DNA of 63,773 nucleotides, filler included, from Hausera hauseri (lineage: Eukaryota), in the NCBI GenBank assembly GCA_046269625.1. It is 11 parts of 11 records of this genome, joined end to end, with 100 filler letters (N's around TTAATTAATTAA, not from the genome) between each part and the next. Parts side by side here need not be neighbours in the genome. Positions count along the whole stretch, not along the records: positions 48,105 to 63,773 come from JBJURY010399922.1; 10 more parts are not named here. The stretch is one strand, 5' to 3'. A program made the translations under genes and the position numbers. The notes under the pieces are model-generated. The model was given only the letters and a program-made list of their open reading frames with translations. It made no database searches and had not been told where the DNA came from. Positions 4,584-63,773 of this stretch are shown here, piece by piece (the stretch's first letter is position 1; each line of letters opens with the position of its first letter).

Positions 4584-4645
4584 GTTATTCCCCACAGACT
4601 CGGTAAATGCGAATGCAATTTTTATATGGATATATTTAAACTAGA

Positions 4646-14155: not shown

Positions 14156-16516
14156 ATGACCGACAAGGCGAAGAATTCAACGCCCAGTACCAGACACGAT
14201 ATCGACGACTTCCTACAACAACATGTGACAGTTTTGAAGCCACCATCTGAAAGCTTATACTATTAGATCGGAGAAAGTCTAAAAAACAAAACTTATGTAG
14301 AAATTAATCAAAAAAGCAAAATACAAAATGGATTGAAATGGGGCTTAGATTAAAACGACTAATTCAATTATACGCTATGCGGGATCCGAAGGATGCACGA
14401 GCATACCTTCTAAAAGATATGATCCCATATGAACCGACGCATCAGCAATTGTACATACATGTCGCTGACGGGGAAGTCCAATACAGGATAGCAGGGCAAC
14501 CCTGGAGCACACAAAGAGGACAACAGTGGAAATTTAGCACCTACGAGTTGTGTTGCTATAGTCTCATATGTTTTGGAGTTCAGAATTGCCGAACTTCCAA
14601 CCAAGCTTATGTTTGAATTAACCTTGCTGACCGAAGTGATGAGACCACTACCACCTATACTATGTATACAGAAACCCTCGGAAGATAAGATAAAACAAAA
14701 TGGAGAATCGTTCAGACTAGTTCCGGACGACCGAAATACTCGAATTTTAGCCGTAAACTATGGAGAGAAGGATGACGGATGGTACACCCCAATCGAAGTC
14801 TCTATCCGAAGTATAAACGGAGAAGAAATTATAAACAAAATAATCTTACCTAGAAATAAAGTAAAAGATACATTTCCTGACGTTACCTGAATTACGAAAC
14901 TACAACTTGAGAAAGGCAAAGATTTCTTAGAAATCCAAGAAGATATAAGCCATTGCTTGTATGGATTCATTAAAACCGGATTCACAGTACATGAAATGCT
15001 AGAAAGGCTATGGATTAAACAAGAATTCGTGGAATTCGTGAACTGAGTCGGAACCCGACGGCTGTAAACCGCGTGGAAAACACCCTAATGAGAAAGAGAA
15101 GATGTCTACTTCGCTCGGCGTCACGAGAATCACAGTTTAAGATGATTCTTGAAGCCATGAATGGCGAAAAATTTAGATTTCCTAAGTTGATGATGGCAAG
15201 CCAACGCACGAAAATAAGAGAGATATTTACATATCGCTACGATGGGAACACGAGTGAAAATCCAGAAACCCTATACAGAATATGATCTCTGACAGTAATC
15301 CAAAAATTTTAATGCAGGAATTCCGTAACGGGTTTAGTGAATACCAGATATCCAGACAGATTGAATCCCAAGGGCACAATAACTTCCAAATAACCGTTCA
15401 GAACGGTCCAGCCAAACCATTCAAACCAGAAGGACCAAATAAGTACAGCCAAGCCTCAATTGATCGAGTCCAAACCAAGTACAGACCGGCTAAAGAATTA
15501 CAAAGACGACAAAAGAAGAAACCGTCTTTCTTTGAGTATATCAGCAAGAAGGAAACCAAGACAAATAAAAACTGTGCTAAGGGATAGAACCGTCCACTAG
15601 CAGCCTAATGCCGACGGCCCAAGAAGAAATAATAGAATCCAAGGACAAACTGAAAACGCCAGAACCCGGAAAAACCACCGGACAAGGAACGGAAACGCTC
15701 AGTTGCGGATCACCTAAAACGGAAGTGAACGTTCTCCGAAGAAATTTGGAAAAACCAGCCTCTATCGTGGTAACCGAGTTCGGTCAGATTAAAGAATACG
15801 CCCAAATGCTTCTTATGGCCGAGTATTATAGCATAGGAAAAATTAAAGAAGCCATGCTTTATGTCTCCACAGTTCCTAGAAGAATCGTAAGTGGAAACGG
15901 ATATACCCGAGAGGATGTAACCATTGGCTGATACTTGGCCCCAATATTCCAGTCGAAAAATGGTATTAATAGACTAACCATCCCAGTAGATACCCAAGTC
16001 CGATTACAACTTAAAAGACAGTACAAGGAAACCGGAATACCCGACTTAGATAAACAATAAATCATTGAATGGACGTTGGTCACCGTGTCAGATGACCTTA
16101 AGAAAAGTTCTATAGACCCCAAAAAACGGCTATACGGATATCTATACCAAGATAAAAAGGGACTCGTATTCGAACAAATGGAAGTTGATGAAAACCTCGT
16201 AGACATTGATAGGGGTGAAAAAGAAAAATGTCCCGTTTGTGATGCAAATCTATATCAATGATTTGTAGCATTAAATAACAAAGATTGCACCCATAAATAT
16301 TGCCGTTATTGCTTAAAAACGTGGACCCTAAGAAATGGGAAAACGACGTGCCCAGTATATAGAACCAAAGGTACAAGACTGAGATATTTCTTTAACAGAG
16401 AAAAAACAAAAAGATAGTGGAAATATTTCACCAAAAGGCCAACACATCATACCACTTTGACCTACGATCACCCCAAGATGAATCGAATTCGGAAACAGAC
16501 TTACGCGGACGAATGA
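14156..16516 (+). pseudogene. Accessory ORF-B with C-terminal RING finger (RING about 16229-16360)
   Basis: Fragments at 14338, 14573, 15073, 15282, 15608 and 16076 join into a homolog of 50033-52375; CPVC...CTHKYCRYC...CPVY. Confidence 0.75.
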
Positions 16517-16582
16517 ACCGTCTACTCGGCACCTCTTCTGACGTAATTGGCACATTCGAGAGTGCCGTTCAGGGAGGAGAAA

Positions 16583-17170
16583 TGTTGTAAAAGTGGCAAG
16601 GAACGTTGTAGAAAGTGCAAGGAAATTTATAATAGAAACCGAAACCGAAAGTAAAACGGAATTTAACAAATAATTATTTAACCACAAATTACGTAACGAT
16701 TATTTAGTGCATGCAGTTATTTAATTTACAACGAATGTAAAAATTGTAAATCAGATAAATAAAGCAGATTAGGGCACACAAATTCCCTGTCGATGAACCG
16801 GACCGATATTTCCAAATTGTGGAGATTGACTTCGTATTATTTTTGTTGATTTCCGACTCTACGATTGTACGTACGGTATTTTTGTTATTGTAAATAAAAT
16901 TGTGTTCTTTCAAAATTCTTTATAGCTTTCCGTCGCTCCTTACGAGGGACTTATACCACATTAAGGATTAAAATTAAAAATAGTATCTATACTTAGGTCG
17001 AGAACTTGCTAAACTACGCAGAGCACAGCACACAGTACACGCATCATAAAACAGTACAAACATTCTAACGAGAACGTTAGGTCTTACCTGCTTATAAATT
17101 CTTGTTCAATTCGAGTTTCATTTATTGTTATAGTTGGGTGTTGAATAGGGCCCACCTTCAACTATTAACA
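16583..17170 (+). repeat. LTR (588 bp), PPT at 16571-16582, degenerate PBS at 17173-17190
   Basis: TGTTG...TAACA termini, preceded by AGGGAGGAGAAA and followed by TT-TAGCGATCCTAGCAGAAC. Confidence 0.85.
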
Positions 17171-36500: not shown

Positions 36501-36782
36501 GCAGCAAAGAAAGGCAAATCGTTAAAATTAACGCGTACAGGCCAAGGACCGTACAAAGTTGTTTATGTGCGTCCACAAACGCATTTCATTCAGAAAGGAC
36601 CTGATAAATACAAGACCATGTATGTTCAACGAGTAACTCGAGCGCCTACATCATATAACGACTTCATACGCGAAGCAGAGCTAGAATCGCCCAACACAGA
36701 AGAGCCCAAAGTAGCAGAACTATGCAAAACTTACTCGATGAATAACTCAGAATATTACTCATTTCATTTCATTCAGAGCTGA
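33545..36782 (+). mobile_element. Degenerate Ty3/Gypsy pol (RT-RNase H-integrase-GPY), related to the large element
   Basis: LDLQSGF, MPFGLKTAP, SYIDD, ILKTDAS, HDSHLAGH...CKIC, QTDR, YHPQCNGMVE and VHYPAAKKGKSLKLTRTGQGPY. Confidence 0.93.
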
Positions 36783-37700
36783 TACATGGCTATCCTTTCT
36801 TCATGCGTTTATCATGCCTATTACAACTGAAGGCATCAACCTAACGGTAGCACCACTTAATGTATTGGTTGAACGCACCACAATTATCAATGTTGATACA
36901 AATAAACCTAGTATTTGTCTTCGAACCCACTTGCCGGTAATAATACATCATAAAGTTGATTTTGTCTTCACATTACAATATAATGTCTTCTCAGTGTGCA
37001 CAATTCTTGAAGCACATAACGAAACTTCCTGTTCCGTCAATTACGAATCAACGTATACGTACTATGTAACACTGAAGGTCAATAATACCGATGCAATTCT
37101 TTGGCAGCCAAATATGACTTTTTCACGTTCCCACTCATCAAGCAATGAACATATTGAAAACTTCCGATGTATTTTCGCGCAATCCTTTTATCGCCTATTT
37201 CTTACAACATGATATTGAAATTTCTAGTATCGATCTTGTAAGACAACCACCTTGTATGAATTTCCGCACCACACAGTTATTACCCATCAAATTTGAGATC
37301 AGCATATGGATCGACCCTATCTCTACATCTATACAACAACCACATTATTGTTATCTTAAGCGGAATGATATTCGTTCATGCTGCACGCTCTATCCAGACA
37401 TCTAGTACAGAATCCGTTTAGATGCATATCAAACAATGGAAAATAGTCAATCCATTAGAGTGCATTCTCATCGCATTCCTATTTTATTTTCAGTTAAACC
37501 AAACATACATATTCCAGCCCTTGCCATGAAGCGCATTACTTCTCCGCGATCTACGAAACAGATGATAACACCGAAATTAGGCACTACACCCACCTATAAG
37601 GATAGGGGAGACCGAGACCAAGACCGAGACCAAGATCGAGATCGAAACCAAAATCAAAATCTCAAATGAAAGTCAAAAGTTCAGATTAAACCACAGAATC
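36760..37700 (+). pseudogene. Post-integrase accessory ORF-A homolog
   Basis: PISTSIQQPHYCYLKRNDIRSCCTL aligns with PLNTSIPKPGYCSLARRRITVCCVL of 48579-49487; followed by a T-rich segment and a GACCGAGACCAA-type repeat. Confidence 0.7.
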
Positions 37701-44608: not shown

Positions 44609-47589
44609 TAGACCTGGTTAAAAAATTTTTCTTTAATTTTGAAATGCATAGTAGTTATTATTTTTCCTTTTCCCAATGATAGTTTGCGTGAAAAAAATCC
44701 CATTAATTTAAATGTTTTTAGAGGTTGCTTAAAGCACATTAACTTTCCAAGCATGATGTACACTATACAACATTTATTATACACAGGCATATTCAGCCTA
44801 GAAAAGACACCATAAACTTATTCCAGTTTCTAATGTTGTGAAAATATAATAAACAGAAAAACCATAAATGTTCATCATTGTCCACTCTACTAAAGTTCCA
44901 TGATGCATCTATTTCCGACGTGCCACATAGCTCCTTGGTGTTCTCTTGCATGAATCTGGAACACGTCTCCGGTGATCCTCCACAACCTGAATTAGGCGTT
45001 GCATATCGCCTTCATTTTTGGTGAAGGATTAGTTGAAGGAGGACATGGAACAAATTGACATCTCGGCTGCATTGTTGATAATCTTTAATGATTTGATAAT
45101 AGCTCTTGAGTGTTGAAAATCTGAATTGTCCATCCAAGTTTCAGTATCATTGTTGAACAGGAAGTCAACATCCACACCAAGAGTCTAAAGACTGCTAGTA
45201 GAAAAAGAATTTACGAACTCCCACAATTCTTTGTTTTCCAGATCTTCTGAACTTTCCAGCTTTGTGATTCTCGTATTATTATCATGTTGACATTGCTTCA
45301 TGGCGTATACCATTTTGCTTTTCTCAGCCGTCGACATCATTTCCAAGAACAGGAATAGCGGAATTAATTCTGATCCAAGATACCACAGATGGCGCTTAAA
45401 TTTTTGCATCACGCAATCGGAAATTGCCTTGTTGACTGTAGAATACTGCTTGATGTGTTTGAAGAAATTCAGATCATTAATTGGCGCATCGCTGACAAGA
45501 AGACATGAAAGCCACGCCTTGACATATACCAAACTGGCAAACAGGCAGAAGTGAGTCAGACTCTTTTGCTCTTCGATAGTGATTTTAAACTGTTCCCTGA
45601 ATAGAGAGATCTTAAAACAATAAATAACCTTAGCCATCCATCTAGCCATGTGATATGTACCGTGAACTCTGAAGTGATATGAACCATGCAACGGAAGAAC
45701 TCCAAGGATTATCAGACAAAGTTCAGCAACTTCTCTATAATCATCTCAAGCCATATATCCATCGATCGATTATAAGAAATTTTGCGTCCATGTTAAAACC
45801 TCGTTCTTAAGCGACAGAAATAACAAATTTTGGAGGTTGGTTTCATTTAATGGAATGTATATCTTACTGTCAATGTTTTCCAGCAATGTTTGAAGCGCTC
45901 AAAGAGAGGAATGTTTAGACTTTTGGAGGAACGAAATAATTCTTTGAACAGTCCAGCTATGACAACTTCGCGCATATGATGTCTACATGCCAGATGCAAC
46001 ACGTTTCTACCCAACATCTGCTCAAGTAAAACACACGCACCACTATTAAAACCCGCATTTGAAGCGGTGGAGTGATACTTCACACAAAATAAGCAACTGG
46101 GCAGTAGCGTTTGCTTGAGCTTTCCCTGTACCAGACTGGATCTTGGCAATTCCCAGTATTTTGTTAACTTGGAGACCTATGATGCATATAGCTAAGCAAT
46201 CAGCTTTTGATCTATCCTGACATCGGCTGGTGGTATCTTACATAATATTTCCATCTCAATGTAATACAAGAGATGGTTTGTCACTCGCTCTAAATTCATG
46301 TTGAATGTTAGCATTAACTGTTTTTCTGCGCACCTTACTTCTTCGATAAACTGTTAAACGAGGTAGTGGAACTCGACATATATCTTCGCCGCTTGCTTTA
46401 CTGATTGCAGCTGACAGGATGGTGAACTTTGCGTCTGATAAACTGACACGATCTAATGCTGAAACCATATCTGATGACTGCACAACGTTTTAAAGTGTTC
46501 GTAATTCCCGAGTATCGGGTTCATCATTAAGACAAGTGTCGGCTGTACTTAACTGCCGACGAGTATAAATAGGAATTCCAAACTCATAATCGCTGTTCTT
46601 TGCCTCGTCATTGTCACCGTTGCTAATGTTGCCTACACTAGAATTATCTACCTTTCCCAGGGTACCAGCGCTTGGCACTCGTGATACGGCAGTTGTCATT
46701 GCTTTTCATCTAGCCGCTCTGTCCACACGTTTCGGCTCCTGCTGTTTTCGTTTTCTACTTCGCTCTTCTTTAGCTGTTAACTTCTTGTCCTCTCTACCCA
46801 CCGTCATTTTTCTTTGTTCACGCTGATCCTTCAAGAACAACCGGTTCTCCTTAATGGAAATCAACTGTTTTGCATTTTTGTGTGCGATATCAAACAGTTT
46901 CTGAGAATCAGACATCCGCCCCTTATTTTTCTTCATAAAATTGTACTTGTCAACCGCAGCTCTCATATTTGAAATTATATTATGTTGAAATGCTATTGGG
47001 ATACGTGATTTTGCCCAGTTTCTTTTAGGTTAACTGAAATAGTTCTATTCAACACTTTGTGGTTATAGAAGAATGTTTTTAGGACATCACCAACCGTTGG
47101 TGATACAGTCACTGGAAGTTTTTCGCAGGCTGTCCTATTAGCCACACTTCAGTTTTTTGCAGCTAGGTGGCACATGATAAAAATATAATACCTCTTCCAT
47201 TATCTTCATCAAGAATTAATCTTACAAATCTAAAATATAAGATCTGTTTTACAAATGTATTTTGTACATATAACAAGATTTAAATTTCTAACAGAAATAA
47301 CAGCATAAATTACCACAGGAAAACAACGAAAAGAGAAATTTAGTTACTGTTCCTATAATTATAAAACGGAATGTATTATAAATATGATAATGAAAATGAG
47401 CAGATTATAACACTTATATCAGCCTTCAACGCATAATAATCAAACTTCATCGATGTTGAGCAACTTGTAAATTTATTTTTATTTAAAAATCCCTTTTTTA
47501 GGATACTAATTGTCATATGGAACACAAAAAATCACTATGCTTTGAAATCTGAGGAAATTTTTTTCTTAATAATATCGTGAACAGCCCTA
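44609..47589 (-). mobile_element. Degraded hAT-superfamily (hATm-like) DNA transposon
   Basis: TASNAG..SGACVLLEQMLGRNVLHLACRHH, YHMARWMAKVIY, HLWYL and LFDIAH; weak TAG-initiated inverted termini at 44609 and 47589. Confidence 0.7.
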
Positions 47590-48104: not shown

Positions 48105-48536
48105 TTCTTAGAAGGCACACAGTTCGCCATTAATACTACTCCACATCCTGCGACAGGATTCACTCCATTTTTTATGATGTAAAATAAAGAAGCTGTACTG
48201 CCTACAGATTTAGGATTGATTCCATATACAACTAGAAGGAAGGATTTAGAGCAGAATTTTATCGAAGTATTACAATCAAGATTTCACAAATGTTGGGAAA
48301 TAGCCAAAGAATTATCTAAAGAATACCAGGAACAATTCAAGAAGCAGTATGATAAAAAGGCTAAACCACACGATCTAGAACCCGAAAACTTGGTCTACGT
48401 ACACTATCCAGTAGCCAAGAAAGGCACGTCTCTTAAGCTTACTAGAACAGGTAGAGGACCTTATGAAGTTACTAAGGTTACACCAACCACAGTTTATATA
48501 AACAAAATTGGCACGGAAGAGGTCATATTAATTTAG
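48105..48536 (+). pseudogene. Integrase C-terminus with GPY motif (continues from 63119-63773)
   Basis: FAINTTPHPATGFTPF, KKQYDKK and TGRGPYEV. Confidence 0.9.
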
Positions 48537-48578
48537 AGAATAGTCGAAACGGAAATAAGGCCAAATAAACGCTATAAT

Positions 48579-49871
48579 TTGCCTTCAGGCAAAACAAATA
48601 AAGAAAAGAAAACGTCGTCGATAGTGACTAGACCAATATCGTATGTGCAAATAATCCTGGCCTTATCGTTAATCGCTTCGTATATACCCACAGTGAAATC
48701 CATCACTCAGACCGAAAAATGGAAGGATATCCAAAACTTACAGTCACTTAGAGTACGCGATATGGATTGGAGAAAACCATGTGCATGGTTTGAAGCAAGC
48801 GTACCTATTCGGAGCCGCGTAAAATTTCAAATAATATTTGTAACCAGGAAAACGATGAGAACGTGCGATTTTCCGTACGGAATTCATAGGAAATTCTGTA
48901 GTTTAGATTTTGGACAAACCTACGGATACGGATTTCAAATGTTTTATTTATATCAGTTCGGAGCTCAAGCCTACATAAGTACGGAGCTCTCAATAAGAGT
49001 GCCCCAACGAAAACACGATAATCAAGCGAAGACGGACGAAATAATTAGAAGCATTGATCCAGTTAAAAGGTTCTTAGACTACAACATTATTGGAATTCAC
49101 AAGGATTTGAAGAACCAATGTATTCGAATTGAGACCAAGATCGGACTACCAGAAGACAAGGAAATATCTGTACAATTTACACCATTGAACACTTCAATCC
49201 CTAAACCGGGATATTGTTCTTTGGCCAGACGACGAATTACGGTGTGCTGTGTACTGCTACTAGGACAGGAGTATCAGTTGCAATTCGATTTGTACAATAC
49301 GTATCTCGGAGAACCAAGTATCTATATAAAAGGATATCGTCCGAAAAACGGAATAAGGCAGCTTCCGTTTCCAACCACTACGAGACAACCGTCCACAGTT
49401 ACGAGCACAACTCTCACTACTACGATAACCACTTCAGACGAAATGCCAAGGGGCATACCTGTTAAGATCTTGGAAAAAAAGCGATAGGATTCTATTCTAC
49501 GCTGAAGAGACGTTAAATCGGGACGTCAAAACTGAATGTCGCACCCTGCACACCAACCAAGTTATGATTCTGAGAAAGAATAGTCAGAAAACTAAATGCA
49601 GGTCATTACAACCACAACACAACTATATAATCCGAATCACCGCAAAGGGTAAAACCCTAAAACCTTCACAGTCCGAACGCATGACGACAAAATCGAAGTA
49701 ATACAGTATAAAGATCTTAGCACTCAAAATGTGTTCACCAAGGAAGGTTTTACTGAGGAAAACAATTTACCGATAATAGCTATATTTAGTTTGTCAATTT
49801 CCGTTCTTGCTATATTAACGGCGATGATTTTTCTAGTTTCCAAAAATTGTAATAAGCGCAGTAAAAATTGA
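48579..49871 (+). CDS. Accessory ORF-A: type I membrane protein (signal peptide, Cys-containing FN3-like repeats, Thr-rich stalk, TM helix); disrupted after 49487
   Basis: YVQIILALSLIASYIPTVKS; LDFGQTY, LLLGQEY and SLQPQHNYIIRITA; TTTRQPSTVTSTTLTTTITT; TM IIAIFSLSISVLAILTAMIFLV (~49773-49838) then KNCNKR. Confidence 0.7.
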
Positions 49872-50032
49872 GAGGGAGATAAAAGGGAAAATGGGCACCA
49901 AGACGGACTCTATGATTGCATAAACTGACAAATACAGATGGGGTTATCCTATCATCAACAGAGAAAATGTTTTGTTTCAAAACGATGATCTGTCTTAGGA
50001 TTGACCTCTATTTTTATTTAAGCAGAGTAAGT

Positions 50033-52375
50033 ATGACCGAGAAGGCGAAAAATCCAGCAATCAGTTCCAATTACGATATCGATGATTTCCTCCAGCAGCA
50101 CGTCACTGTTCTTAAACCCCTGTCCAAAGGTCTATACCGACAAATTGGAGAAAACCTGAAGACTCAGAAATATTTAGAATTCGGCTAAGAGAGTAAAATA
50201 CCAAACGGACTAAAATGGGGCTTGGAAGAGAATCGACTGTTTCGATTATACGCCATGCGAAACCCAAAGGATGCACGGGCATACCTTTTAAGAGATGTAA
50301 TTCCCTATGAGCCGACACATCAGCAATTGTACGTACATGTCGCTAATGGAGAAATTCAATACAGGATCGTAGGACAAACCTGGTGTACGCAAAAAGGGCA
50401 GCAGTTGAAGTTTAGTTTTTATGCGCTATGTTGCTATAGTCTCATGAATTATGCCCTGAAATTTAGGATCGCAGATCTTCCGACCAAAATCATGATCGAA
50501 ATGACGTGGCGAACCGATGTAATGAAGCTGCTACCACCGTTATTATATGTACAAAAACCATCAGAAGATGAGATAGAGTAAAATGGAGAGTCCTACAGAT
50601 TAGTTCCAGACGGTAGGAACACCAGAATATTGGCCGTGAACTATGGAGAAATGGATGACGGGTGGTATGTTCCAATCGAGGTCTCTATTAGAAATACCAA
50701 TGGAGAAGAAATCATAAACAGAATAATTGCACCTCGAGCTAAGAAAAAGGACACTTTTCCCGACGTCACAGGAATTACAAAAGTACAGCTCAAAAAGGGA
50801 AAATATTTCTTGGAGATCCAAGAAAATATAAGCCATTGCTTATATGGATACGTCGTTACCGGATTCCGAGTTCACGAAGCGTTGGAGCGACTAGAAATTA
50901 GGCAAGAATACATAGCCGGAATTCGAGAAGTAAGCCGAAACCCAGCCGTTGTGAGCCAAGTAGAAAATACTTTGATGCGGAAAAGAGGTTGTCTGCTTTC
51001 TCCCTCAACATCTCGCGAATCACAATTTAAGATAATGATAGAAGCCATGAATGGCGAACGATTCAAATTCCCTAAGCTAATGACCGCAAGTCAACGGACC
51101 AAGTTTATAAAAGATATCTATGACTCAATACGATGGGACCACGAGTGGAAATCCAGAAACCACATGCAGAACGCAATATCCGAAAACAACCGCAAAATTC
51201 TGATACAAAAATTTCAAAAAGGGTTTAGTGAATACCCGAATTATCGGCAAATTGAACCACAAGGACATAACCAATTCCGAGTAACAATCCCTAATAATCC
51301 AATGGAAGTTCCAGACAGCCGACAGAAACCACTCACCAGAAAGTCTCGAAAAGAAATGACAGTAAAACCAGATTCAAGAAGACAAAAGACAAAGATGACT
51401 TTTTAGAATTTATTAGTAAAAAGAAGGACAAAATCAGTAAGAGTCAAATAGAAGAAATCAAATCAACAATAGACAGCTTAATCCAGGAAAGAAAAATGAG
51501 CGATCAGAGAGAAGCGTAGAATCAAGACAAAAACCACGGTAATCAAACGAAAATTCCCAAATCCAGAACCCTTAAAACGGAAGTCAACGTTATTCGGAAG
51601 AACTGGGAGGAAGATACCACGATTACAGGTACACAATTTGGCCAAGTGAAAGAATATAAACGAATCCTCGTCATGGCCGAATACTATAACAAAGGAAAAA
51701 TTAAAGAGGCTATATTTCATTTATCCACCGTCCCGAGAAGATTAGTGAGTGGAAACGGATATGCCAGAGAAGATCACACTATCGGCAGATACTTAGCCTC
51801 AATATTCCAATCAAAGAGCGGCACCAACAGACTAACAATTCCTGTGAATACCCAAGTCAGAATTCAGCTGAAAAGACAATACAAGAAGACTGGAATACCC
51901 GATTTGGACAAACAAGAAATAGTAGAATAGACCCTGGTTGCGGTATCCGACGATCCGAGAAAAAGCTCAATAGACCCCAATCAAAAGAGACTGTACGGAT
52001 ACTTATACCAAGACAGAAAAGGACTGGTATTCGAGAGAATAGAAGTGGACGAAAACCTAGTGGACATTGATGCCGCTGAAAAAGAAGAGTGTCCCGTCTG
52101 TGACGCGGATCTCTATCAAGGATTTGTAGTCCTAGACAACAAAGATTGCAATCACAAGTATTGTCGGTACTGCTTAAAAACGTGGACCCTGAAAAATGGG
52201 AAAACGACCTGCCCTGTATGAGAGCCGAGGCTACCAGACTAAGATACTATTCAAATGGAGAAAATAAAAAGATAGTAGAGATAAAACCCGAATAGGCCAC
52301 TACGTCCTATCATTTTGATTTGCAATCGCCGTCGAACGAAACGGATTCAGAAGCGGACTTACGCGGACGAATGAA
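50033..52375 (+). pseudogene. Accessory ORF-B, unknown N-terminal domains plus C3HC4 RING finger (52090-52221)
   Basis: Fragments 50033-50188, 50222-50581, 50630-51406 and 51646-51930, then CPVC-x15-CNHKYCRYC...CPV*. Confidence 0.78.
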
Positions 52376-52428
52376 CCAATTACGCGGCACCTCTTCTGAC
52401 GCAATGGGCACATCCGAGAGTGCCTTTC

Positions 52429-52440
52429 AGGGAGGAGAAA
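52429..52440 (+). promoter_or_regulatory. Polypurine tract
   Basis: AGGGAGGAGAAA abuts the LTR TG; identical at 16571-16582. Confidence 0.88.
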
Positions 52441-53151
52441 TGTTATAAATGACTATGAACAAATTGTAATTATGTACAGAACCGAAATGAAAGCGAAACT
52501 AGTGAAACTAGACTAATAAAACCACGATAAATCAATTGATTAACTATGAAATATCACAAAATGCCAGTTAGTAAATGTCAGGCGAATTTAATCAATAGAA
52601 ATGGCAGAAAATTCCAAAAAATGTATAAAATTAGGTAGCAACGACGCTATGTAAGTAGTCAACGTAATATATAAAGTTAGTTAATTATTGCCAGTGTAAT
52701 TAGTTAATCAGTCAGATACGAATTAGCAAATATTACTATCAGGCGAATTGTTCAGTTATTCCAAAATTTTGAAAGACTTGACGATTAAATCCGGTACATT
52801 GATTGCATTGTTGAAAATTACTAGTATTGCTGATCCGACATTCTCATTATCGGTGTGGTATTATTGTTGTTATTGAATAAACTATTATATCTTAAAAATT
52901 TCTATAGTTTTTCGTCACTCCTTACGAGGGACTTGCATCGTACTAAGTTCTAAAATCAAATTTTAAAATTTTTAGTTAGGTCGAGAAATTTGTAATTTAC
53001 GCAATCACTGCACGCAGTGCACACATCTTAAAATAGTGCAAACATGCTAACGAGAACGTTAGAACTTATCTGCTCAAATAACATTTAAATTTTGAAAATT
53101 ACTCATTGTTATAGTTGGGTGTTGGATAGGGTCAACCTTCAACTACTAACA
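52441..53151 (+). repeat. LTR (711 bp)
   Basis: TGTTA...TAACA inverted termini, TATAAAA near 52624, AATAAA near 52877; bounded by PPT and PBS. Confidence 0.88.
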
Positions 53152-53153
53152 TT

Positions 53154-53171
53154 TGGCGACCCTAGCAGGAC
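53154..53171 (+). promoter_or_regulatory. Primer binding site (probably tRNA-Arg)
   Basis: TGGCGACCCTAGCAGGAC lies 2 nt after the LTR; its complement TCCTGCTAGGGTCGCCA resembles tRNA-Arg 3' ends. Confidence 0.8.
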
Positions 53172-53588
53172 AGTTTGAACTTGCTAGTCTTGACTCTTAG
53201 TGAAAAGTAACGACATATTAGCGATTAGCGCTATAACATTAAATAATTGATTGCAGATTATTGTGAAATTAAAATTTGGGATTAGAAAGAAACCCTCCGT
53301 ATTATAACGACATATTATTGGGTCAAGACGGATATTGACGGACATAAGTTAGAGGATAACCTAAAACTCATTCTAAACGGTAAAGTGAATATTATTTTTC
53401 GTGAAACACGTAATAGAGTTTATAGAGAAGGTAAGACGTTGGGTACACGCACTTTACCCGAGTCAAATTTAGTTAATACCGAACTTATTGATTTAAACGC
53501 TGTTTAACAGCCTATTGAATTTAAAATTCCTGATAAGAAAGTTAGAACTCGTAGGATAATTAAGCAAAATCTAATAAACGGTGAGAAT

Positions 53589-54660
53589 ATGGTCGAAAAT
53601 CAAGCAGTAGCTCAAAAATTGGACACTTTTACATTCGACTCTCTGAATCTTCCGGCGTACGACGGAGACCGGGACGGACTTAACGAATTTCTAAGGACAT
53701 ATAAGTTGCATGCAGAAGGTGCTTGACTAGCAGCTAACGTGATGATTAAACGTTTGTCGTTATATTTAAAGAATTTGGCCGCTGATGCCTATAGTAAACT
53801 CATGGATGATAAAAGAAAACTTGTTCCTCACTGGTAGGAACCCTGAATCGAAAATTATTGCCGACTGTAACTCCGCAACAAAAACATATGACTTTTCAGC
53901 ATAGAGTACAACAAAATGGTGAATCAATAACCCAATTCGCTTTTGCATTAAAGAAATTGGCAAACAGTTACGTAAGCACTTTAAGAATAGCAAATATAGC
54001 TAAGGCTAAAAATGAAGCAGAACGCGAAGCCGCAGAAAAGGCAAGTCTCCCCGACATAGACGTCATGATGATGACACAATTAATAAATGGTATTTGGTCT
54101 AAAGACATAGTAAAGCAATTGATTCTAGCACGTCCCGAAAATTTTGATAGGACATTGCAATTAGCTCAAGACTTGGAAATGACATTGGATAGATATGCCA
54201 GAAACAATGACAGAAACGATAGAAATAATGATCAAGGTGATCGAAGCGATAAAAATCAAAATAATAGAAATGATAGACGATTTAATAAGAATTACGGAGA
54301 CCGAAACAAGAACGGTAATTAAATTCGCAGAAACGAGCGATATAGTAATCAGAATTTTGATAACAGTCGAAATAGTTTTTCTAATAAATCAAACTATACT
54401 ACGGATAAACGTATAGATGGCTCTAAAAATTTTAATCGACAAAGCGACAGTCGAAATTACGATAATCGACAATATGGAGATAATAGACAGGTCCGGCACA
54501 GCAGAACTACAATAGAAATCCGGGTAGATCGAAATCCCCGTTAAACGAAGATGACCGACAAAAGATCGGAAGAAATGGCAATTTTATTTGTTATACGTGC
54601 GGACAAGAAGGACACAGCGAGATCCTGTCCAAACCCGCGAAGCGTCTCGTTTGTTGAACC
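53589..54660 (+). pseudogene. gag with CCHC zinc knuckle (54589-54628)
   Basis: LPAYDGD..GLNEFL, RVQQNGESITQFAFALKKLA, QLINGI, an N/D/R-rich linker, and CYTCGQEGH/ARSC split by a frameshift. Confidence 0.85.
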
Positions 54661-55357
54661 TAGTAAAACTAATGCAATTAAAAACGAAAACTTTGAAGTA
54701 ATTTACGGTGTCCGTAGAGACACGGGTATGATCATCGAGATACAGGATTTACGACGTTTTTTAAAAGTCCAACCCTTTACTACAGACTTTAAAGTCTTAG
54801 TGGCCAGAAACGAGTATGAACACAAGTTACGACTATTAGAAGTTTATCACTGTCTGTGCGAACCAGAAACAGAATATGAACGTTTTATTGCCCGCCATGG
54901 CTTACTGATATGACACGAAAAAAGAACATTCCTAAGGCAAGCAACGGGTCAGACGAAACAGAAAATCCTGAGATACCGAAATAGGTAGATATAGATGTAG
55001 AAACCGAGTATACTATAAAAACGGTAATCACGGAGACAGAGGCCGACAAAAAAGAAGAATTTCTGGAACCGCTTATACTTAAAATTACCAAGGATAGAGG
55101 CCGTAGTCCATCATTGAGACGAAAATGCAAGGACCGATCGAGATCCCCAATGATAAGGGAAAAGTCAAGCACAAAGAGAGAAGCCGAGATCGCGCTAGAA
55201 AGCGACACAGAATGCGTCTTGAACATTCCGGAAATTGATCTAGTTACGCCAAGCGAAAAAAGGAGCTAACAAAATATATAAATGAAATAAACGAAGTATG
55301 TCCTCTACCCACTAGCGAAAAGGAAACAGAACAATAAGAGAAACTCGATCCTAAGAA

Positions 55358-57499
55358 TTGGAAAGTCAGACGCTCATGGAAAATGCTAATAAATTAAAAA
55401 GAATGAGGACCAACTGTCTAAACCCCGAAGTAGTACAACAGAATATAGAGAAACTTAAAGCAATGAGTGAACAAGTGGATATTTCGGGCAAAGAACAACA
55501 GTTTGTAGAGAGATTATATAAAAAGATAAACCTATATAATGAAGGGAAACTAAGCGAAGCCATAGACTTAGATCAGCCCAAAGAAGTGTCGAAGGGAACT
55601 TTATCTCAGTGGAAACACGAATTAGAACGCTGGAGCAAATGAAAGACAAAATTTCCGGAGACGTGAGATAAAGCTACCCAAGACATTGAAACTAGAGTTA
55701 ACCAAGCACAATCGCTACTAACTACATTAGAAGCCAACCCGAAACTAAAAAGAGTAGCACGTAATTGGAAGCGTATTATGAATGAAATTAGATTTGCGAT
55801 AGCCGAACAACTCAAGGGAAAGCCGGTCAAAGAATGAGATGCAAATGACCTAGAGATGTTGGGCATAGATTCAATAGACATTCCACCCTTGATGGAAATG
55901 ATGAAGGTCGCTTCGACAGCATCAAAGCAATATACAAGTTTGGAAAATCGTATTAGAATTGAAGCCGAAAAACGGTCGCAGATATATGGTTTAAGGAACA
56001 GAATTATGCACAACGGTAACGAGGAAACACATAAAATAATTATGGCTTGCATCCTCGAGTTTGATGAATACAAAGATGAGTTTGACTATGCCTACCGGAT
56101 CGTAGATTTTATTAAAGGCCCAGATGATGAGCTAGAAGATGCTCGTAACATGTTAAGCAAAGCAATATTGGCAAAGCCAGAAATCGCCAATCAGTTGAAT
56201 GAATGGTCCAAAGTAATAAGAAGGTTGAGTGCATTAATAAAGAATCGAAGAAGCGAATTCCCGGAAAGTGAACCTACAGTGAAGAAGCGTCTAAAAGAAG
56301 ATGCCCGAAATCTAGATACAATGAACGCAGAAATTGACATCCAAACCCAATTTGAGGCATTACGCCAATTGAACTTCATGGAAAAGAAACAAGAACTAAC
56401 GATACTAGATGATATCTATAAAATGATCGAGGAAACAAATTTCATGAGGAAACGGAATGCGACTTGCGATTTCTGTCCGCGATTGAGAGACGTCCGCTTA
56501 AAAGGGATACGATATTTGACGACTAAGCCTATCAAGGAAATCTCGATTCAAGATCTTAAAACTTTGGACTTTTGTCCCGAATATCGGTCTGTCGTCAAAG
56601 AAACGGTGCAGTTCTTGCATCACTCACAAAGATGGGCGGACGGAACAGATCAAAGGCATCATACTGAACTAATTAAAATAAAAAACGACCATCACCTCAG
56701 TTTCGAAGAGATCAAATTTGTAAAAAAATTATTAGATGCGATAGACCCAGATTCACTATTGATAGCAGAAATGGCAGAGATTAGTGACGAGAAGCTAAGA
56801 CAATTGCTGCAACAAATACAACAAGTTGAAGAAACTTGCATTAAGACGAAACAGACAGCAATGAGATTAGAGGAGTTAACTAGAGAACTCGAAGGCTATA
56901 AAAACAAGTACGCTCTTACAGAAGCAGAAAAAGCCGACAAGTCACAATTCGTGCAAAGGTGGCAAAAAGATGTCACGTCCGAACTGACGAAATATCAAGA
57001 AAAAGGGTTAATTTCACCGAAAGAACTATGTTCGATGTTAACACTGCTCCATCAAACGTCTAATAATGGACATTGTTTCCGAACGACAAAAATAGTTCAG
57101 TTGCTACAGAAACTACAAGAACTCAGAAAAATTACATGGACTGAAAGTGTGGATATGCCAACCGATACACCTTTAAGGGACTATCAACTGCCGAATAACG
57201 AGAATGAAACAGAATGGGAGGCATATTTGGATGCAATGATCGCTGAAAACCCGAAAACTCCCGTACGATTAAGCGAAGCAGAGGTATATTTTTCGGACCA
57301 AAGATTTAATGTGGGAATGCTACTAGACCCAATACAAACTGAGAAAGATTTAATTCAGTTGATCGAAGTAAACCTCACGGAAGTTCAATTAAGACAGTTG
57401 GTCCCTACTCTAACTAAATTAGCTAGCGAAGGTACGATATATAGTACGGTACCAAAACTTTTACTTAAGGAATATGCCAAAATATTGAAAACAAAATGA
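55358..57499 (+). CDS. Large helical/coiled-coil region of unknown function inside the element (547-aa open segment 55856-57499)
   Basis: Long E/K/L-rich ORF colinear with gag, with heptad-like stretches; no recognised motif. Confidence 0.7.
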
Positions 57500-58097
57500 G
57501 AAGAAAGAATTTCAGTAAAGATAGTAGCAGACTGGATGGTCGAGAAAGAACACGAGTTCACTACACACTTTCGTGTAAAAGATGTAATAGAGTGGATAAG
57601 AGATAATGGACCAGGAGTTAAATTACAGACTCTATTTTAGAGGAAGAATATTAGAGGAAACGGAACTGCTAATAGAGGTCGGCATTATTCCAGGTGAAGC
57701 ACACCGGATAGTTGTAACTATCCCTGTCGAAGAAACAAAGGAAGAAGCTATAAGAAAAGCTAAACAGAAACAGTGCGTAGGACGAATCATAGGAGTTCGA
57801 GATCCCGTAATGTATTTCGAGTACTTGCAGACAGATAGAGATGATGAACAATATGATAAGAATTTAGCACCCATAAACGGTAATGTACCTCCTATAACAA
57901 AACAGAGGCGTCCTGTCGGCAGACCACGGAAGTTACGAGAAGAAGTCGATTATAATGGAGACCTAATCAAAGAGTGGAGGCAAATGTCTATACCAACCTG
58001 CAATGCAAACAATGAGGAACTGAACGAACTTATGAAAAAATTGATACGTATAGTAAACCATTCTAGTTTCAGCAGCGATATATTAGATGAGAAATAG
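57500..58097 (+). CDS. Ubiquitin-like domain (~57509-57725, one frameshift) followed by an AT-hook
   Basis: ISVKIVAD...RVKDVIEWI / YRLYFRGRILEETELLIEVGI resembles ubiquitin [29 protein letters not shown] follows. Confidence 0.65.
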
Positions 58098-58448
58098 AAG
58101 GCCATATTTAATGCCGCCAAGGTTATGAAGAGTCTTCGATGTAAATTATCTAGAAGTACCTTGAGCAACGAAATGATAATCGAGAAAATTATGGTAGAAA
58201 ATACCATAGAAGAATTGAGAAAAGCGATGTTATATCTGGCCATTAAAACTAACCCAAACCGAGAAAACGAATTTAACAAGGCTACTACTTTGGCAAGGAA
58301 GGCTGCCAGGAAAATGCCTCGGGAAGTAAATTGGTCTAAGTTATTCAAAAAAGAAGAAGAACATCCAAGTGGATTTTTCTTCGATAACAATAAATTCGGA
58401 GATCTGTTACGAAACGTAACCGGAAACCGCACAGGAAACGAATCGAAC

Positions 58449-60633
58449 TGGCTAATTAACTTTTTGACCATGATGATGTTAATAAGGCAAATGAGCGCAG
58501 TTACAGTGTATGACTGCGACAAATTTAGACTTGGCCAGAAATACTCATTAATGGATTTAGAAATGTGGGAAGACACGAGACCCCACAAATTAGAAACAAA
58601 AGAAAGGAATTACGTAGAGGCAGGAAGATTAGACATGCACACCGGACACTGTCAAAGTGCAGAATACGATACCGGGAAAGGATTAGAGTCAAATGTCGTA
58701 GTAGTAGACTTTTATGAAACCGAAATGCGCGTACAGAAAGTGATGTTCCATAGTGTTACTAAACTTTATACTGAGAACCATAAATGTCACATTCAAGATG
58801 GCACATGCCCATTTCGAAGTTCCGTAGTAATTTGGGAACCCACAACTAAGTCTGATTGCAACTTTATCAGAATTAAAGAACTAAAATTTAACGAGACAAC
58901 GGGAAAACGGTACGTAAGTAGCACTGAAACTAATTCCAAAACACGAGAAGATGATCGCTGATACTCAGGGGCTTAAGTTTGTTAAGAAAGATGTATTCAC
59001 AAGATGCGATGTTATAATGTATGCTACTAACTATAAAGCATTTTTTGTGGCCGAGACGGAAATAAACGTCCGAACGTTTAAGCTCGAGACTCAAGACATC
59101 CGGATTGAGGATTACCTGAAAAACAGAGATGACTATTTCTATTATAAAGGACAGGCCGGAATAGCTAAATTGTACCACAAAATGATAAAGAATGACTGCA
59201 AGTTAGATTTAGAGGTTATGAGAACTAAGCTAGCCCTGATATATGTTAATCCTGAGTTGGCATCACCAATAATTCCGATGAACGAAGGTGTTTTTGGACG
59301 AGTAACCGGAGAGGTTTTATTGACGTATGAATGCGAAAAGAAAGACGTACCAATTAATGTAGAAGAGAAAAGGTGTATACAAGAGTTTCCAATGATATAC
59401 CAAGACGCACCAAGATTAGTAACCCCAATTACCAGAGTGTTGTTGGCAAATGCCACGCAACCGACAATTTTGAGAGATTGTAAGACTAGCTTAGGAGAGC
59501 CGATGTTCAGACGTAGCGAAACCGACTGGATAAGTTTACCGAATGGCGGTATTATCGCACTTCCTACCAAACTGACAGGAACAAATTTGATAAAAGGAAT
59601 AACCGATGATAAATTTCAAGATACAGCAGCAAAAGGTATTAACCGACAAAAAGAGGTAGAGGCATTTAGACAATTCCTCTCTTTTCCCCGCCAGCGTACA
59701 CATGAATTAAATAGAGCGATGCATACGATACTAGAAGACTCGCGCCACCAGGCGAAATGAGAGTCATTACTCGATGTTGGTTATTACAAGAAGGTAACTA
59801 CAGAAATATTGTACAAAATTTGGGGAAGATTCCTGATATTCGGACAGGCCGCGTCAGGGTTTCTAGCGATATACTTCTTAATTCAACTAGTAAAAGCCAT
59901 AATTCAAGCAATCATAAATGGATACGAGATATTCACCTTGACAGGATTTTCGCGTAAAATTTTAACGGCTATTATTACTCCCTTCGGCAAAGTCCTAAAG
60001 GCTTATGAAGAGGGTAAATGGAAAACAGATGTGAAGAGACATGTTGGCTACTATAACCGAAAGCGGAAAAGACGCATAATTAATTACAAGCAAAAATTCA
60101 TAGATAGTAAGACACGAAGAAATAATTCTGACGATGAGAAGCCTAAGGGAGGAGACGCCATCTCCAGATTGAACCGGCACAAAAATTACTCTATTATGAA
60201 ACTACTATTACCGATATTGCCGACAATGGTACCTATATATGAAGATTGCGAGAAACAATCTATAAGCTTATGCAAGACAGACGTCTATCAGAAACCATTT
60301 AACATAGAGGACCCCTATGAAGGAACAAAACGCTACGGGATATTGCGTAAGATCCGCGAAACAGAGAGAACGTTTATTCCTCATCGTCGCTGGGCAGTCG
60401 ACGATCACGGTGTGATGTATTCACCTAGAGTGCCTAAGCCAAACGAGACGCAAGCATTATTTTCCAGAAGCCGTGAGGTACACAATCTCCAGAACCAAGA
60501 TGTTAGGCTACCAATTCGAAATCAAGGAATGGAAAATACGATGAATACGAATAATGAATTATACCCCATTGGAGAACTAAGGCAATTAATCGAGCAACCA
60601 GTTGGAACCACTGAAGTTACCATAAACGATTAA
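58449..60633 (+). pseudogene. Envelope glycoprotein, chuvirus-G-like (probable class III fusogen), frameshifted
   Basis: Internal signal WLINFLTMMMLIRQMSA followed by VTVYDC; CHIQDGTC..VIW..C; GVFGRVTGEVLLTYEC.......CIQEFP; LVTPITRVL; C...PMF....W; pre-TM and TM IWGRFLIFGQAASGFLAIYFLIQLVKAII. Confidence 0.78.
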
Positions 60634-60636
60634 AAG

Positions 60637-63600
60637 ATGTCCACGGCACGGCGCCCCAAGACAGCACCAAGTTATTACGGTACAATAATCGAAGGTAGGC
60701 CCTTCGCAAAGATTCAATTAGAAGAATGGGAGGTTTACGCGCTAATAGATACAGGATCTGAAATATCACTAATAAAATACGATTCGATACCACAATTTCT
60801 ACGGAAACAACTGTATCCACCTCTTACGACAGACTCAGGAAGCACTGGAGCTTTCGGACAGTCATCGAAAAGTAAATTTCATTGGAAACCAGAAATTCAC
60901 ATAATGGGACAATGCTTCCGTCACGGATTTTTAGTAATGGAGCAATTAGCGGATCATGTAGTATTAGGGTGTGACTTGTTGAGGCAACTATTTAATATAG
61001 CAATCGATTTCAATGCAGACAAGTTAATAAAACTTGGTCCAATAAAAGGAGTTAAAACCACTGAAGACAGGAAATTTGGAGAAGTGCAGATTCCAGTGGA
61101 CGAAACCATACCACCCAGAACAGAAATTTTGATATATGCTCAGATACCTCAGGATGACGATCAGCCAATATATTTTGAACCAAAGGAATCGCTCGATCCA
61201 AACATCGTGCTCAGCAATGTCTTGACAAGATTATCAACAGGCCGCGCGCCAATCAGAATATCGAATAATGCGCCTACTCCAAACCAAACTGTACGCCAAT
61301 ACTACTCTAGGACACACGTGTAGAGTATTATCAATTACCATCGAGGAGAAACCGTATAAAGGCGCTGAGTTTCCGCCCCACGTCGAGACTATATTTTTAC
61401 CGGAATCCTATTGTCGATTCTACGAATTACTCTGCCGTTACAGCTTTATTATCGCTAAAGATAAAGAAGATATTGGCCGAGACAAGACCTTAAGGCTCAC
61501 AATTCCACTTAAAAAAAGCCTAGATCTAACGACGAAATAGACTTAGAGGATCAAAAGATGTCGAAATGGTATCCTCCTCCACACTCGTTACGGCCAGAAA
61601 TAACTAAGGAAGTTGAAGGAATGTTAAAGGCTGACATAATTAGACCAAGCTGTAGATCTTGGTATTCAGGTATCCTCATGGTTAAGAAGAAAGGTGCCAG
61701 TAAGCACAGATTCTGTATCAACTATCGAGCATTAAATACACGTATGATGAAGGACTCTTTTCCGTTACCATCAGTAAAGGAAGCTTTGGACAGACTGTCT
61801 GGAGCCAAATAGTTCACCACGCTTGATTTGCAAACTGGATATTGGCAAGTAGAAATAGAAGAGGAAGATCGTTACAAAACGGCATTTAAGACACATTACG
61901 GCATATATGAATTTAATGTTATGTCTTTTGGGAATCACTACTGGACCAGCCATTTTTACCCTTATGATGAAGAAAATGCTAATGCGACTAGAACACGCAT
62001 TTGCCAATTTGGACGATGTTATGATTGCATCGAAAACGGACGAGGATCATTTAAAGGACATTGAAGATACACTTATGAGACTAGAGCAGGCTGGACTGAA
62101 ACTGAATCCCAAGAAGTGCAAATGGGCTCAAAATGCTGTGTCGTACCTAGGACATACTGTAGGAGAAGGAGGATCAAAACCGGATAGATTACTATTGAGC
62201 AAAATATCGGACTGCATGGAACCTCAGAACCAGAAGGAGTTAAAACACTGGTTAGGGTTATGAAGATGTTATGCGACCTATGTACAAGATAATGCGAAGA
62301 TAAACGCACCTTTATATAGCTTATTAAAAAGGAATTAAATGGATATGGACCGATGTCTAACAAAAGGCTTTTGATGAAATGAAGAAAATTCTAACTAGCG
62401 AACCAGTTTTAAGATATCCTGATTTCAACCTGCCTTTCATAATCAAAACATACGCAAGTAGGGAAGGTATCGGATATGAATTAGCTCAAAAACGCGAAGA
62501 CGAGGAGCTAGAACACCCAAACGCATATGGAGGGTGTTTTCTAAAGAAAGCAGAAAAGAACTATTCTGTTACAGAGTTGGAAACGTTAGCGATGAAAGAA
62601 GCCCTGCGACATTTTAAAGTGTATGTCTATGGACAAAAGATCGTAATCGTTACTGATCATAAGGCAGTTACAACTTTAAAGGGTAGAGCAAATAATCCGA
62701 CCTGTAGACTTAACAGATGGATTGAGGAGATCTCACGTTACAATATTAAATTTCAGTACAAACACGGAAGTAAACATGTCGACGCTGATGCATTATCTAG
62801 ACTTAGAACTAAAACGAGCACCGTTACGATAATGAAGAAGGCTCACCTTGAAGGTCTGGTAGAGAGACAACGGACTCTTGTGTTAGATAAAGCATTAAGG
62901 ATTTCTGTCGAACAAAAGAAGGATAGAGTGATACAACAGATTATTGAGTTCGCGAGCACCGGCAAAATGCCACAAGGCCACCAATTGCGAAAACATCTAA
63001 GAAAATATGGCAACAAATACTGCTTAACGGGAGATTCGAGTCACGAAAATGTGTTATACTATGAGCGAAAAGGACGGAAATTAGTCGTCATGCCGAAAGA
63101 TTACGTACAGAAGTACTCATGGCGGAACATGATTCATACTTAGCCGGATACATGTCGTGGAAAAAGACATTGGAAAGGATATTAAATAAGTATTATTGGC
63201 AATGCATTTATATCGACGTAAGGAATTGGGTGAATACTTACGAAGTATGCGCAACCGAACAGAGAAAGGTGAAGAGTTACATTGCCGAACTTAAGCCCAT
63301 TGACGTGCCCGATAGACCAATGCAAGCAATGTTTATGAATATTGTAGGACCCTTGCATACAACCCACAAGAATGATAAATACATACTGACCTGTGTAGAT
63401 CGATTGACTCATTTCGTTAAACTTATAGCATTATTAGACCAAAAGGCCGAGGCCTTGGCAGAAGCGGTAGTCTGGAAAATCATTTGCAGATACGGGCCAC
63501 CCGAACAAATATTGACAGATCGAGGAAAAAACTTTACGAGCGAATTGTTTGAGAAAATTACCAAGAATTTTGAGATTGAACGATTAACTACCACAGCTTA

Positions 63601-63773
63601 CCATCCCCAATGTAACGGAATGGTCGGGCGGATGAACGTGACCGTTATACGGATCTTATCCACAGTAGTCGCAAAGACCAGAAAGATTGGAATGAATTCT
63701 TAGAAGGCACACAGTTCGCCATTAATACTACTCCACATCCTGCGACAGGATTCACTCCATTTTTTATGATGTA
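60637..63773 (+). pseudogene. pol: aspartic protease, RT, RNase H and integrase (stops and frameshifts)
   Basis: ALIDTGS, RFCINYRALN, LDLQTGYWQ, NLDD, YSVTELETLA, VTDHKA, ADALSR, LTDRG and YHPQCNGMV. Confidence 0.95.

Follow-up and report, generated by a model that had tools for sequence, protein, structure and literature searches.

The window analysed here is a 63,773-nucleotide stretch of DNA from Hausera hauseri (NCBI GenBank assembly GCA_046269625.1) made up of 11 unrelated contigs, one of which (48105-63773; JBJURY010399922.1, 15,669 nt) carries an envelope-bearing long terminal repeat (LTR) retroelement of the Ty3/gypsy type. Its genes follow the order gag-env-pol, and the last gene encodes a RING finger protein of about 805 codons (copy B; 50033..52448, + strand), delimited by tblastn with an intact relative, the database protein P0003, and by selection that is seen in the coding frame only. 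A second, broken copy (copy A; 14156..16590, + strand), which shares 73-77% nucleotide identity with copy B, lies on a separate contig that is joined to the rest of the window by N-spacers. The original prediction was of a retroelement-encoded RING protein missed by open reading frame (ORF) calling, and the motif behind it, CPVC-x15-CNHKYCRYC-x12-CPV, is found where it had been placed, from 52090 in copy B and from 16229 in copy A (RING 16229-16360). In the six frames of the window this pattern occurs twice, against a mean of 0.02 in 100 shuffles, none of which reached two. The 96 codons around the C3HC4 RING finger of copy B (52090..52221, + strand) match the Pfam families zf-RING_2 (E 4e-7) and zf-C3HC4 (E 1e-5), both above cut-off, and the domain had escaped ORF calling because the stretch that holds it is short, lacks a start codon, and is bounded by a stop and a frameshift. 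An assembly artefact was considered as the source of the RING and rejected, as the domain is present on two independent contigs and on an unrelated record.

Neither window copy is able to encode the protein any longer, and the description of a long ORF therefore does not hold for either, since both contain premature stops and frameshifts. Copy B is interrupted by 5 premature stops and 2 frameshifts, and aligns to P0003 in three frames at 40%, 54%, and 33% identity; copy A has at least 6 stops, one of them inside the RING, as well as several frameshifts, and aligns to P0003 in five segments. None of the 11 aligned premature stops is common to both copies. Each broken copy retains seven of the eight zinc ligands. 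The eighth had been given as TAT in one copy and TGA in the other; copy A indeed has a tyrosine codon (TAT) at this position, but in copy B the TGA marks a one-base frameshift rather than a plain stop codon. The RING is also not the end of the gene, as had been supposed. The selected frame continues for about 75 codons past the RING and crosses the polypurine tract to a stop at 52448 (16590 in copy A), a few bases into the LTR, with a ratio of nonsynonymous to synonymous substitution rates (dN/dS) of 0.24 against 0.92 and 1.53 in the other frames. The earlier end at 52375 was rejected because its stop belongs to a frame without selection.

Conservation between two diverged copies, also part of the original prediction, was borne out by codon alignment: over 696 codons the copies have 73% amino-acid identity, with a dN of 0.159 and a dS of 2.27, the latter near saturation, and dN/dS is far below the value near 1 that would have spoken against a selected gene. 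Substitutions between the copies are concentrated at third codon positions. Uncorrected proportions (pN/pS) in the coding frame are 0.17 in the predicted barrel, 0.18 in the exonuclease fold, 0.14 in the domain that precedes the RING, 0.08 in the RING, and 0.33 in the tail; the per-domain intervals all lie below 1 in this frame, and ten control frames gave 0.9-3.0. The RING itself is 88% identical between the copies. Purifying selection has thus acted on the gene around the RING, and the two copies descend from long-separated, once active subfamilies, each copy having decayed after insertion.

The intact relative P0003 (E 4e-66) is a protein of 870 amino acids encoded on a contig of 16,242 nt, and aligns to the window gene at 42% identity over 428 residues and 54% over 224 residues. 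It has all eight zinc ligands in C3HC4 spacing (C747, C750, C766, H768, C771, C774, C787, and C790), so that the ligand missing from the window copies is present in a natural relative, and its RING scores 30.8 bits against a Pfam zf-C3HC4 cut-off of 21. We take V749, W778, and P788 to occupy the usual E2-contact positions (the loop-1 hydrophobe, helix tryptophan, and loop-2 proline) and R791 to be the linchpin arginine; their placement agrees with alignments to RLIM and RING1B. By all sequence tests the protein resembles a RING ligase, and the proposal of a candidate E3 ligase encoded by a retroelement stands after the dN/dS and eighth-ligand tests. The C-terminus of P0003 consists of the same residues that the window encodes across the polypurine tract, an indication that P0003, too, sits at this position in an LTR element. 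A truncated relative, P0004 (contig 12,445 nt), covers the N-terminal 325 residues at 53% identity. A representative-library search returned 114 matches, among which, besides P0003, 7 cover the N-terminal half and 106 the RING region only; 4 of the 7 pass the Pfam RNase_T cut-off. In viral contigs, neither P0003 as a query (5 candidate stretches) nor the exonuclease alignment (96 stretches) yielded a relative.

The domains upstream of the RING had been described as unrecognised, which applies to only one of them. The first (50072..50512, + strand) is likely a barrel, predicted from the match to the P0003 model as an AlkB-like double-stranded beta-helix without the H-x-D/E metal motif. The model of P0003 residues 49-206 is closest to Ofd2 (Z 9.8, root-mean-square deviation (rmsd) 4.3, 137 aligned), ALKBH6 (Z 9.5, rmsd 3.3, 136 aligned), and ALKBH5 (Z 8.6), with prolyl hydroxylases and pirin at Z 8.4-9.2, and the model does not single out an AlkB subfamily; weak barrel matches also occur within the Foldseek lists. 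The metal motif is found in none of copy B, P0003, and P0004. An alignment of 14 rows holds one invariant histidine, at which the residue two positions on is A, I, S, or G.

The second domain (50618..51148, + strand) is predicted to have an ISG20/REX4-type DEDDh exonuclease fold, a call supported by three routes. In the Atlas search with residues 55-470, RNase_T exonucleases led (0.88) and the ten best named matches were all of one family or clan; a profile that included distant N-terminal-half relatives matched ISG20L2 (E 4e-18); and the model of P0003 residues 243-418 superimposed on human ISG20 (Z 17.3, rmsd 2.5 A, 157 aligned; Foldseek E 7e-8) and ISG20L2 (Z 16.8). The P0003 model was built from a 16-row alignment, a single-sequence model having given a mean pLDDT (predicted local distance difference test) of 31, and its confidence is good over most of residues 55-420, fair at the RING, and low in the remainder. 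P0003 and copy B retain none of the five catalytic residues (D, E, D, H, and D); copy A, by alignment, retains none either, and P0004 likewise lacks them where it is covered. As the catalytic residues are gone in both copies and in P0003, the exonuclease domain was kept by selection after its death. The substrate-side motif around a P-R and a G-I stretch is conserved with active relatives. Since the DEDDh and AlkB catalytic motifs are both absent, the protein is best described as a pseudo-exonuclease that falls outside the active families of DEDDh and AlkB enzymes.

Between the exonuclease fold and the C-terminal part lies a poorly conserved linker (51149..51648, + strand) with basic clusters and one frameshift in copy B, about 35% amino-acid identity between the copies, many indels, and pLDDT below 50. 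It is followed by a domain of about 140 residues (51649..52074, + strand) that is 80% identical between the copies and for which the label of unrecognised is apt: no Pfam, Atlas, or profile match was obtained outside the family, and model confidence is low. Among the sequences compared, this pre-RING domain co-occurs solely with the RING.

In metagenome contigs, 14 of 451 candidate stretches were confirmed as related loci, which place the gene in a wider family of barrel-exonuclease genes. Catalytic residues were surveyed at 12 of these loci, two (L002 and L003) being left out as near copies of L001. The D-x-E motif is present at 12/12, the third acid at 11/11 where covered, and the H and D at 10/10 where covered; a RING in the barrel-exonuclease ORF was found at 0/12. 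The polypurine tract and LTR junction follows the gene, as in the window, at 10 of the 14 loci, and L001 continues into a gag related to that of the window (copy A gag homolog against the Pfam-confirmed gag of L001, E 3e-9). A T-rich tract and AG stand just before the first or second ATG at 11 of the 14 loci, as in both window copies, where a pyrimidine-rich tract ending in AG (50005..50025, + strand, in copy B) forms a putative splice acceptor 7 nt before the ATG. This arrangement suggests that the genes are expressed from spliced subgenomic mRNAs. In both copies, the few bases that separate the putative acceptor from the ATG include a hexamer with a perfect likeness to a splice donor (50027-50032 and 14150-14155), which possibly marks a micro-exon or recursive splice site.

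Two of the related loci, L002 and L004, also have RING and TRAF proteins, encoded by genes of their own that lie upstream within the same 3' cluster. This cluster (L004:1-6727, L002:54-4652) contains two RING-H2-type proteins, one further RING, and a full TRAF (RING, zinc finger, MATH), then two small coiled-coil ORFs, the intact barrel-exonuclease gene, and the LTR junction. A derivation of the window RING from the separate RING genes of L004 was considered and found no support; these rank 104 and 106 among the 121 matches listed, a list already enriched for good RING matches. Two further proteins, P0006 and P0043, are catalytically dead with no RING seen, and a tree of 18 exonuclease proteins does not show whether catalysis was lost before or after the RING was gained.

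The contig that carries copy B has identical 77-base ends (48105-48181 = 63697-63773) and is thus read as a collapsed, circularly permuted element of about 15.7 kb, in which a single LTR is visible and the pair and the flanks lie outside view. The LTR (TG...CA; 52441..53151, one collapsed copy) lies between the polypurine tract (52429..52440), which is overlapped by the last codons of the RING gene, and a tRNA primer-binding site (53154..53171) that starts with TGG 2 nt past the LTR; all features of the element are on the + strand. Then follow a broken gag (53390..54900) with a zinc-knuckle remnant, identified by homology and a dN/dS of 0.14-0.22; a long helical region (55200..57499), coiled-coil-like by eye, with a 553-codon open stretch and no Pfam family above cut-off; and a broken class III (gB-type) envelope glycoprotein gene (58098..60300), which matches Monjiviricetes_fusion (PF24664; E 8e-22 and 6e-15) at 58918-60000, upstream of the protease. 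The broken pol (60634..63773, onward from 48105 via the circular end) encodes protease, reverse transcriptase, RNase H, and integrase (Pfam RVP, RVT_1, RT_RNaseH, Integrase_H2C2, and rve), the reverse transcriptase having Ty3 as its best PDB match (E 1e-9).

A second accessory frame after the integrase (48640..49870), likewise broken, is seen in translation to contain a signal-like stretch, a Thr-rich stalk, and a transmembrane stretch, and has a counterpart at 13642-13990. No Pfam family above cut-off matches it; one motif is, by our assumption, reminiscent of fibronectin type III. At the related locus L006 (1-1512), a gene for a similarly built membrane protein precedes the exonuclease gene, with no detectable sequence match to that of the window. 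Between the membrane gene and the RING gene, 49818-50030 has a dN/dS of 0.22 in one frame despite stops, and could be a small ORF, a tail, or an RNA signal. Copy A repeats the arrangement of RING gene, LTR (16583..17170, + strand), primer site, and gag start (to ~18078), with the polypurine tract at the same junction. In one run (X1), 26,214 contigs map on the element over its whole length (30/30 bins), mostly 85-99% alike; only 1,439 are at least 99% alike, and transitions dominate, a pattern that fits a large, old, and decayed family.

The contigs of the window are separated by spacers at 4484, 9387, 13542, 18592, 23310, 28342, 33445, 37916, 42577, and 48005, each an N-run around a 12-base sequence with stops in all frames, and adjacency across them is meaningless. 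A second contig has identical 77-base ends (28442-28518 = 33368-33444), which points to an assembly path that is circular or collapsed, and 33725-37400 holds a different gypsy pol (reverse transcriptase, RNase H, and integrase) followed by a frame without assignment in the post-integrase slot. Host-like genes comprise a rhodanese and ubiquitin hydrolase (4645-7433), which we take to be USP8-like, a short TBP-like frame (8916-9360), and an unrelated RING on the minus strand (12194-12643), presumably RBBP6-like. Fragments at 20988-23357 (-) and 45185-47029 (-), without Pfam match, are in our view reminiscent of Polinton/adintovirus genes and a DNA transposase.

The RING and the exonuclease of this cargo each have counterparts in elements already described. 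The giant gypsy-like elements Burro and GYPSM1 of planarians have env between gag and pol and encode RING, TRAF, BIR, and BCL2 domains, according to the available part of PMC6431247, and the RING-BIR region of Burro1 is reported to protect stem cells (cited in PMC13465017). The window element resembles Burro, as far as that description extends, in the position of env, in an envelope akin to mononegavirus fusion proteins, in a long coiled region after gag, and in RING or ubiquitin-pathway cargo whose domains are either fused or separate ORFs. It differs in its size (15.7 kb, against more than 30 kb for Burro) and in the lack of TRAF, BIR, and BCL2 in the window frames scanned, which is why we do not file it as Burro, and its RING belongs to a 3' gene of its own, where it is joined to dead barrel and exonuclease folds instead of to BIR; the available part of PMC6431247 mentions no exonuclease. 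Errantiviruses of the gag-env-pol order with gB-type env have been reported from Nematoda, Bryozoa, and Platyhelminthes (Chary and Hayashi, PMC13524379). In the portion available, these share with the window element a Ty3/gypsy pol, a class III env before pol, the LTR, polypurine tract, and primer site, and one flatworm env row resembles, by eye, that of the window; unlike them, the window element has at least two extra genes after the integrase. The host is an animal with introns, and the gene order together with the likeness of env makes a flatworm plausible. RING, ubiquitin, and accessory genes are unmentioned in the available text of that study, and RING, exonuclease, and AlkB are absent from the 7 supplements that were word-searched.

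Exonuclease cargo is in turn known from bdelloid rotifers, where the LTR elements Juno and Vesta and the Terminons carry an intact DEDDy exonuclease as ORF3 (PMC5408684; also PMC6338049). Both there and here, on the evidence of the parts of these papers available, a DEDD-family 3'-5' exonuclease is the 3' accessory ORF of a gypsy-type element, and the DEED variant of the rotifer ORF3 is shared with the RING-less relatives that we found. The rotifer protein is nevertheless of the DEDDy, RNase D-like type, intact, and without barrel or RING, in contrast to the dead, fused, ISG20/REX4-like DEDDh domain of the window. The closest architecture belongs to a host protein: PML-1 combines a RING with a pseudo-exonuclease domain, PXL, that binds G-rich RNA (PMC13659232), and PML-I is reported to promote degradation of L1 ORF1p (PMC10123124). 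As these sources have it in the parts available, PML isoform 1 is, like the window protein, a RING protein with a dead DEDDh-derived domain, and is tied to ubiquitin-dependent control of retroelement proteins. PML is, however, a host restriction factor of TRIM architecture with an N-terminal RING and a TREX-like domain, while the window gene is retroelement-owned and has a C-terminal RING and an ISG20-like domain. We therefore regard the likeness as analogy and not homology.

PML-1 and the ubiquitin-pathway cargo of Burro are closer comparisons than herpesvirus ICP0, the analogue originally proposed, because outside the RING the protein is made of an AlkB-like barrel and an ISG20-like exonuclease, both dead. 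ICP0 is a viral RING ligase, and arenavirus NP and coronavirus nsp14 are active exonucleases; with such proteins the window gene shares a C3HC4 RING encoded by a mobile element and a DEDDh fold used in host conflict. To our knowledge none of the three carries both a RING and an exonuclease module. The ICP0 comparison is a loose one, and in the protein and structure searches made we found no similarity to ICP0 beyond the generic RING.

In the literature covered (Creative Commons papers in PMC and bioRxiv, with the supplements of PMC13524379 only), a fusion of barrel, dead DEDDh domain, and RING in a retroelement was not found. RING cargo (Burro) and exonuclease cargo (rotifer elements) have each already been published for related elements; what is new here is the per-domain selection test on two copies, the corrected gene end, and the polypurine tract junction common to RING-less, catalytically intact relatives.

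We tentatively hypothesize that the gene encoded an RNA-binding E3 ubiquitin ligase directed against host proteins that restrict or silence the element, a reading that we hold to be a near-even prospect. The protein would be expressed from a spliced subgenomic mRNA, its two dead domains would bind nucleic acid, and the RING would recruit an E2, leading to ubiquitination of host proteins on element RNA, with PIWI/Argonaute or antiviral RNA-binding proteins as candidates. Its history may have been one in which an older barrel-exonuclease gene lost catalysis and, in this lineage, gained the pre-RING domain and the RING. As the families to which the two predicted folds belong work on nucleic acid, and the folds were kept after catalytic loss and a RING was added, the simplest use would be to bind RNA and ubiquitinate proteins there. 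An anti-host role seems somewhat likelier than housekeeping because relatives replicate without a RING in this place and carry other ubiquitin-signalling genes. A more specific form of the hypothesis, in which the dead barrel reads methylated RNA, the dead ISG20-like domain holds the RNA end, and the RING ubiquitinates an RNA-bound host protein, is in our judgement rather unlikely; if true, such an RNA-guided ligase would represent the conversion by a retroelement of an RNA-degrading accessory enzyme into a protein-degrading one.

Several observations weigh against the hypothesis of an RNA-binding ligase. The activity, binding, substrate, and expression of the predicted ligase rest on inference, and P0003 is the one full-length intact relative obtained in searches for further ones. 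The AlkB match is moderate, its Z of 8.4-9.8 being near the level of a common arrangement, and the barrel profile, run against PDB sequences, found no AlkB and gave one unconvincing match. The exonuclease model was drawn from an alignment that included distant, catalytically intact rows, and a profile of the close rows only is weak against exonucleases (DnaQ E 0.07, ISG20L2 E 0.7). The dead exonuclease domain of P0003 has 23 K+R against 23 D+E (28 against 23 in copy B), and with no net positive charge in P0003, nucleic-acid binding is not evident from its sequence. The pre-RING domain could choose the substrate instead. Finally, P0006 and P0043, dead without a RING, imply that catalytic loss was independent of RING gain, and their own placement in the tree is weak (support 59/57, long branches).

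The most sceptical alternative denies ligase activity altogether and takes the RING as a zinc-binding structural or dimerisation module, or as captured passenger DNA. Certain RING domains have no ligase activity, and both window copies are dead and have lost the eighth ligand, but we consider this very improbable given that the breaks are private to each copy, that the RING is the most constrained part of the gene, and that P0003 keeps all ligands and the E2-contact residues. If the RING is a working ligase, it might serve the cycle of the element itself by binding genomic RNA and ubiquitinating Gag or ribonucleoprotein components during export, assembly, budding, or uncoating, in the manner of a CERV-like regulator. 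In Cer1, the accessory protein CERV arises by splicing and acts in RNA export (as reported in the available part of PMC10309623), and the window gene is likewise probably expressed from a spliced mRNA; moreover, besides its envelope gene the element encodes a further membrane protein, and the basic clusters of the linker could be a nuclear signal. We nonetheless find this rather unlikely, since the corresponding protein of close relatives, encoded in the same slot, lacks a RING, so that the ligase is not needed for the basic cycle, and the TRAF and several RING genes of related elements point to host signalling.

The protein could instead tune cell survival or immune signalling, as the IAP-type RING of Burro1 is reported to do, and so benefit host stem cells rather than attack defence. 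Burro elements carry RING, BIR, TRAF, and BCL2 (PMC6431247), the Burro1 B-IAP is said to protect stem cells (cited in PMC13465017), and TRAF genes recur in L002 and L004; here, however, the scanned frames of the window element show no BIR, TRAF, or BCL2 family, and the domains fused to the RING are nucleic-acid enzyme folds, which makes this reading improbable. It is also quite unlikely that the dead domains are protein-binding decoys that mimic host ISG20L2/REX4 or ALKBH proteins and attract the partners of these, or that the pre-RING domain selects a substrate, for the RING to destroy. The lack of a basic surplus in the dead exonuclease domain would fit a decoy, as would the conservation of the pre-RING domain at a level like that of the others and its restriction to RING-bearing sequences among those compared. 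Known pseudo-DEDD domains nevertheless still bind nucleic acid, including PXL of PML (PMC13659232) and those of Maelstrom and EXD1 (cited in PMC5408684), and the substrate-side motif of the window protein is conserved with active relatives. The hypothesis of an RNA-binding ligase aimed at host restriction or silencing factors therefore remains the one that we prefer.

A mechanism is known for few of the counter-defence proteins that animal LTR retrotransposons encode, and the gene family described here offers a natural comparison, in the same slot before the 3' LTR, of catalytically intact proteins without a RING, dead proteins without a RING, and dead proteins with one. As an intact natural RING-bearing protein is available, ligase activity, RNA binding, and substrates are directly testable. 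If the more specific, RNA-guided form of our hypothesis is true, a transposon would have built the mirror image of a PML/TRIM-type restriction factor, and an invertebrate would harbour a protein that uses ubiquitin against piRNA or RNA immunity. More generally, if silencing factors are its targets, the protein would illustrate one way in which complex retroelements of invertebrates keep up with piRNA and antiviral pathways.

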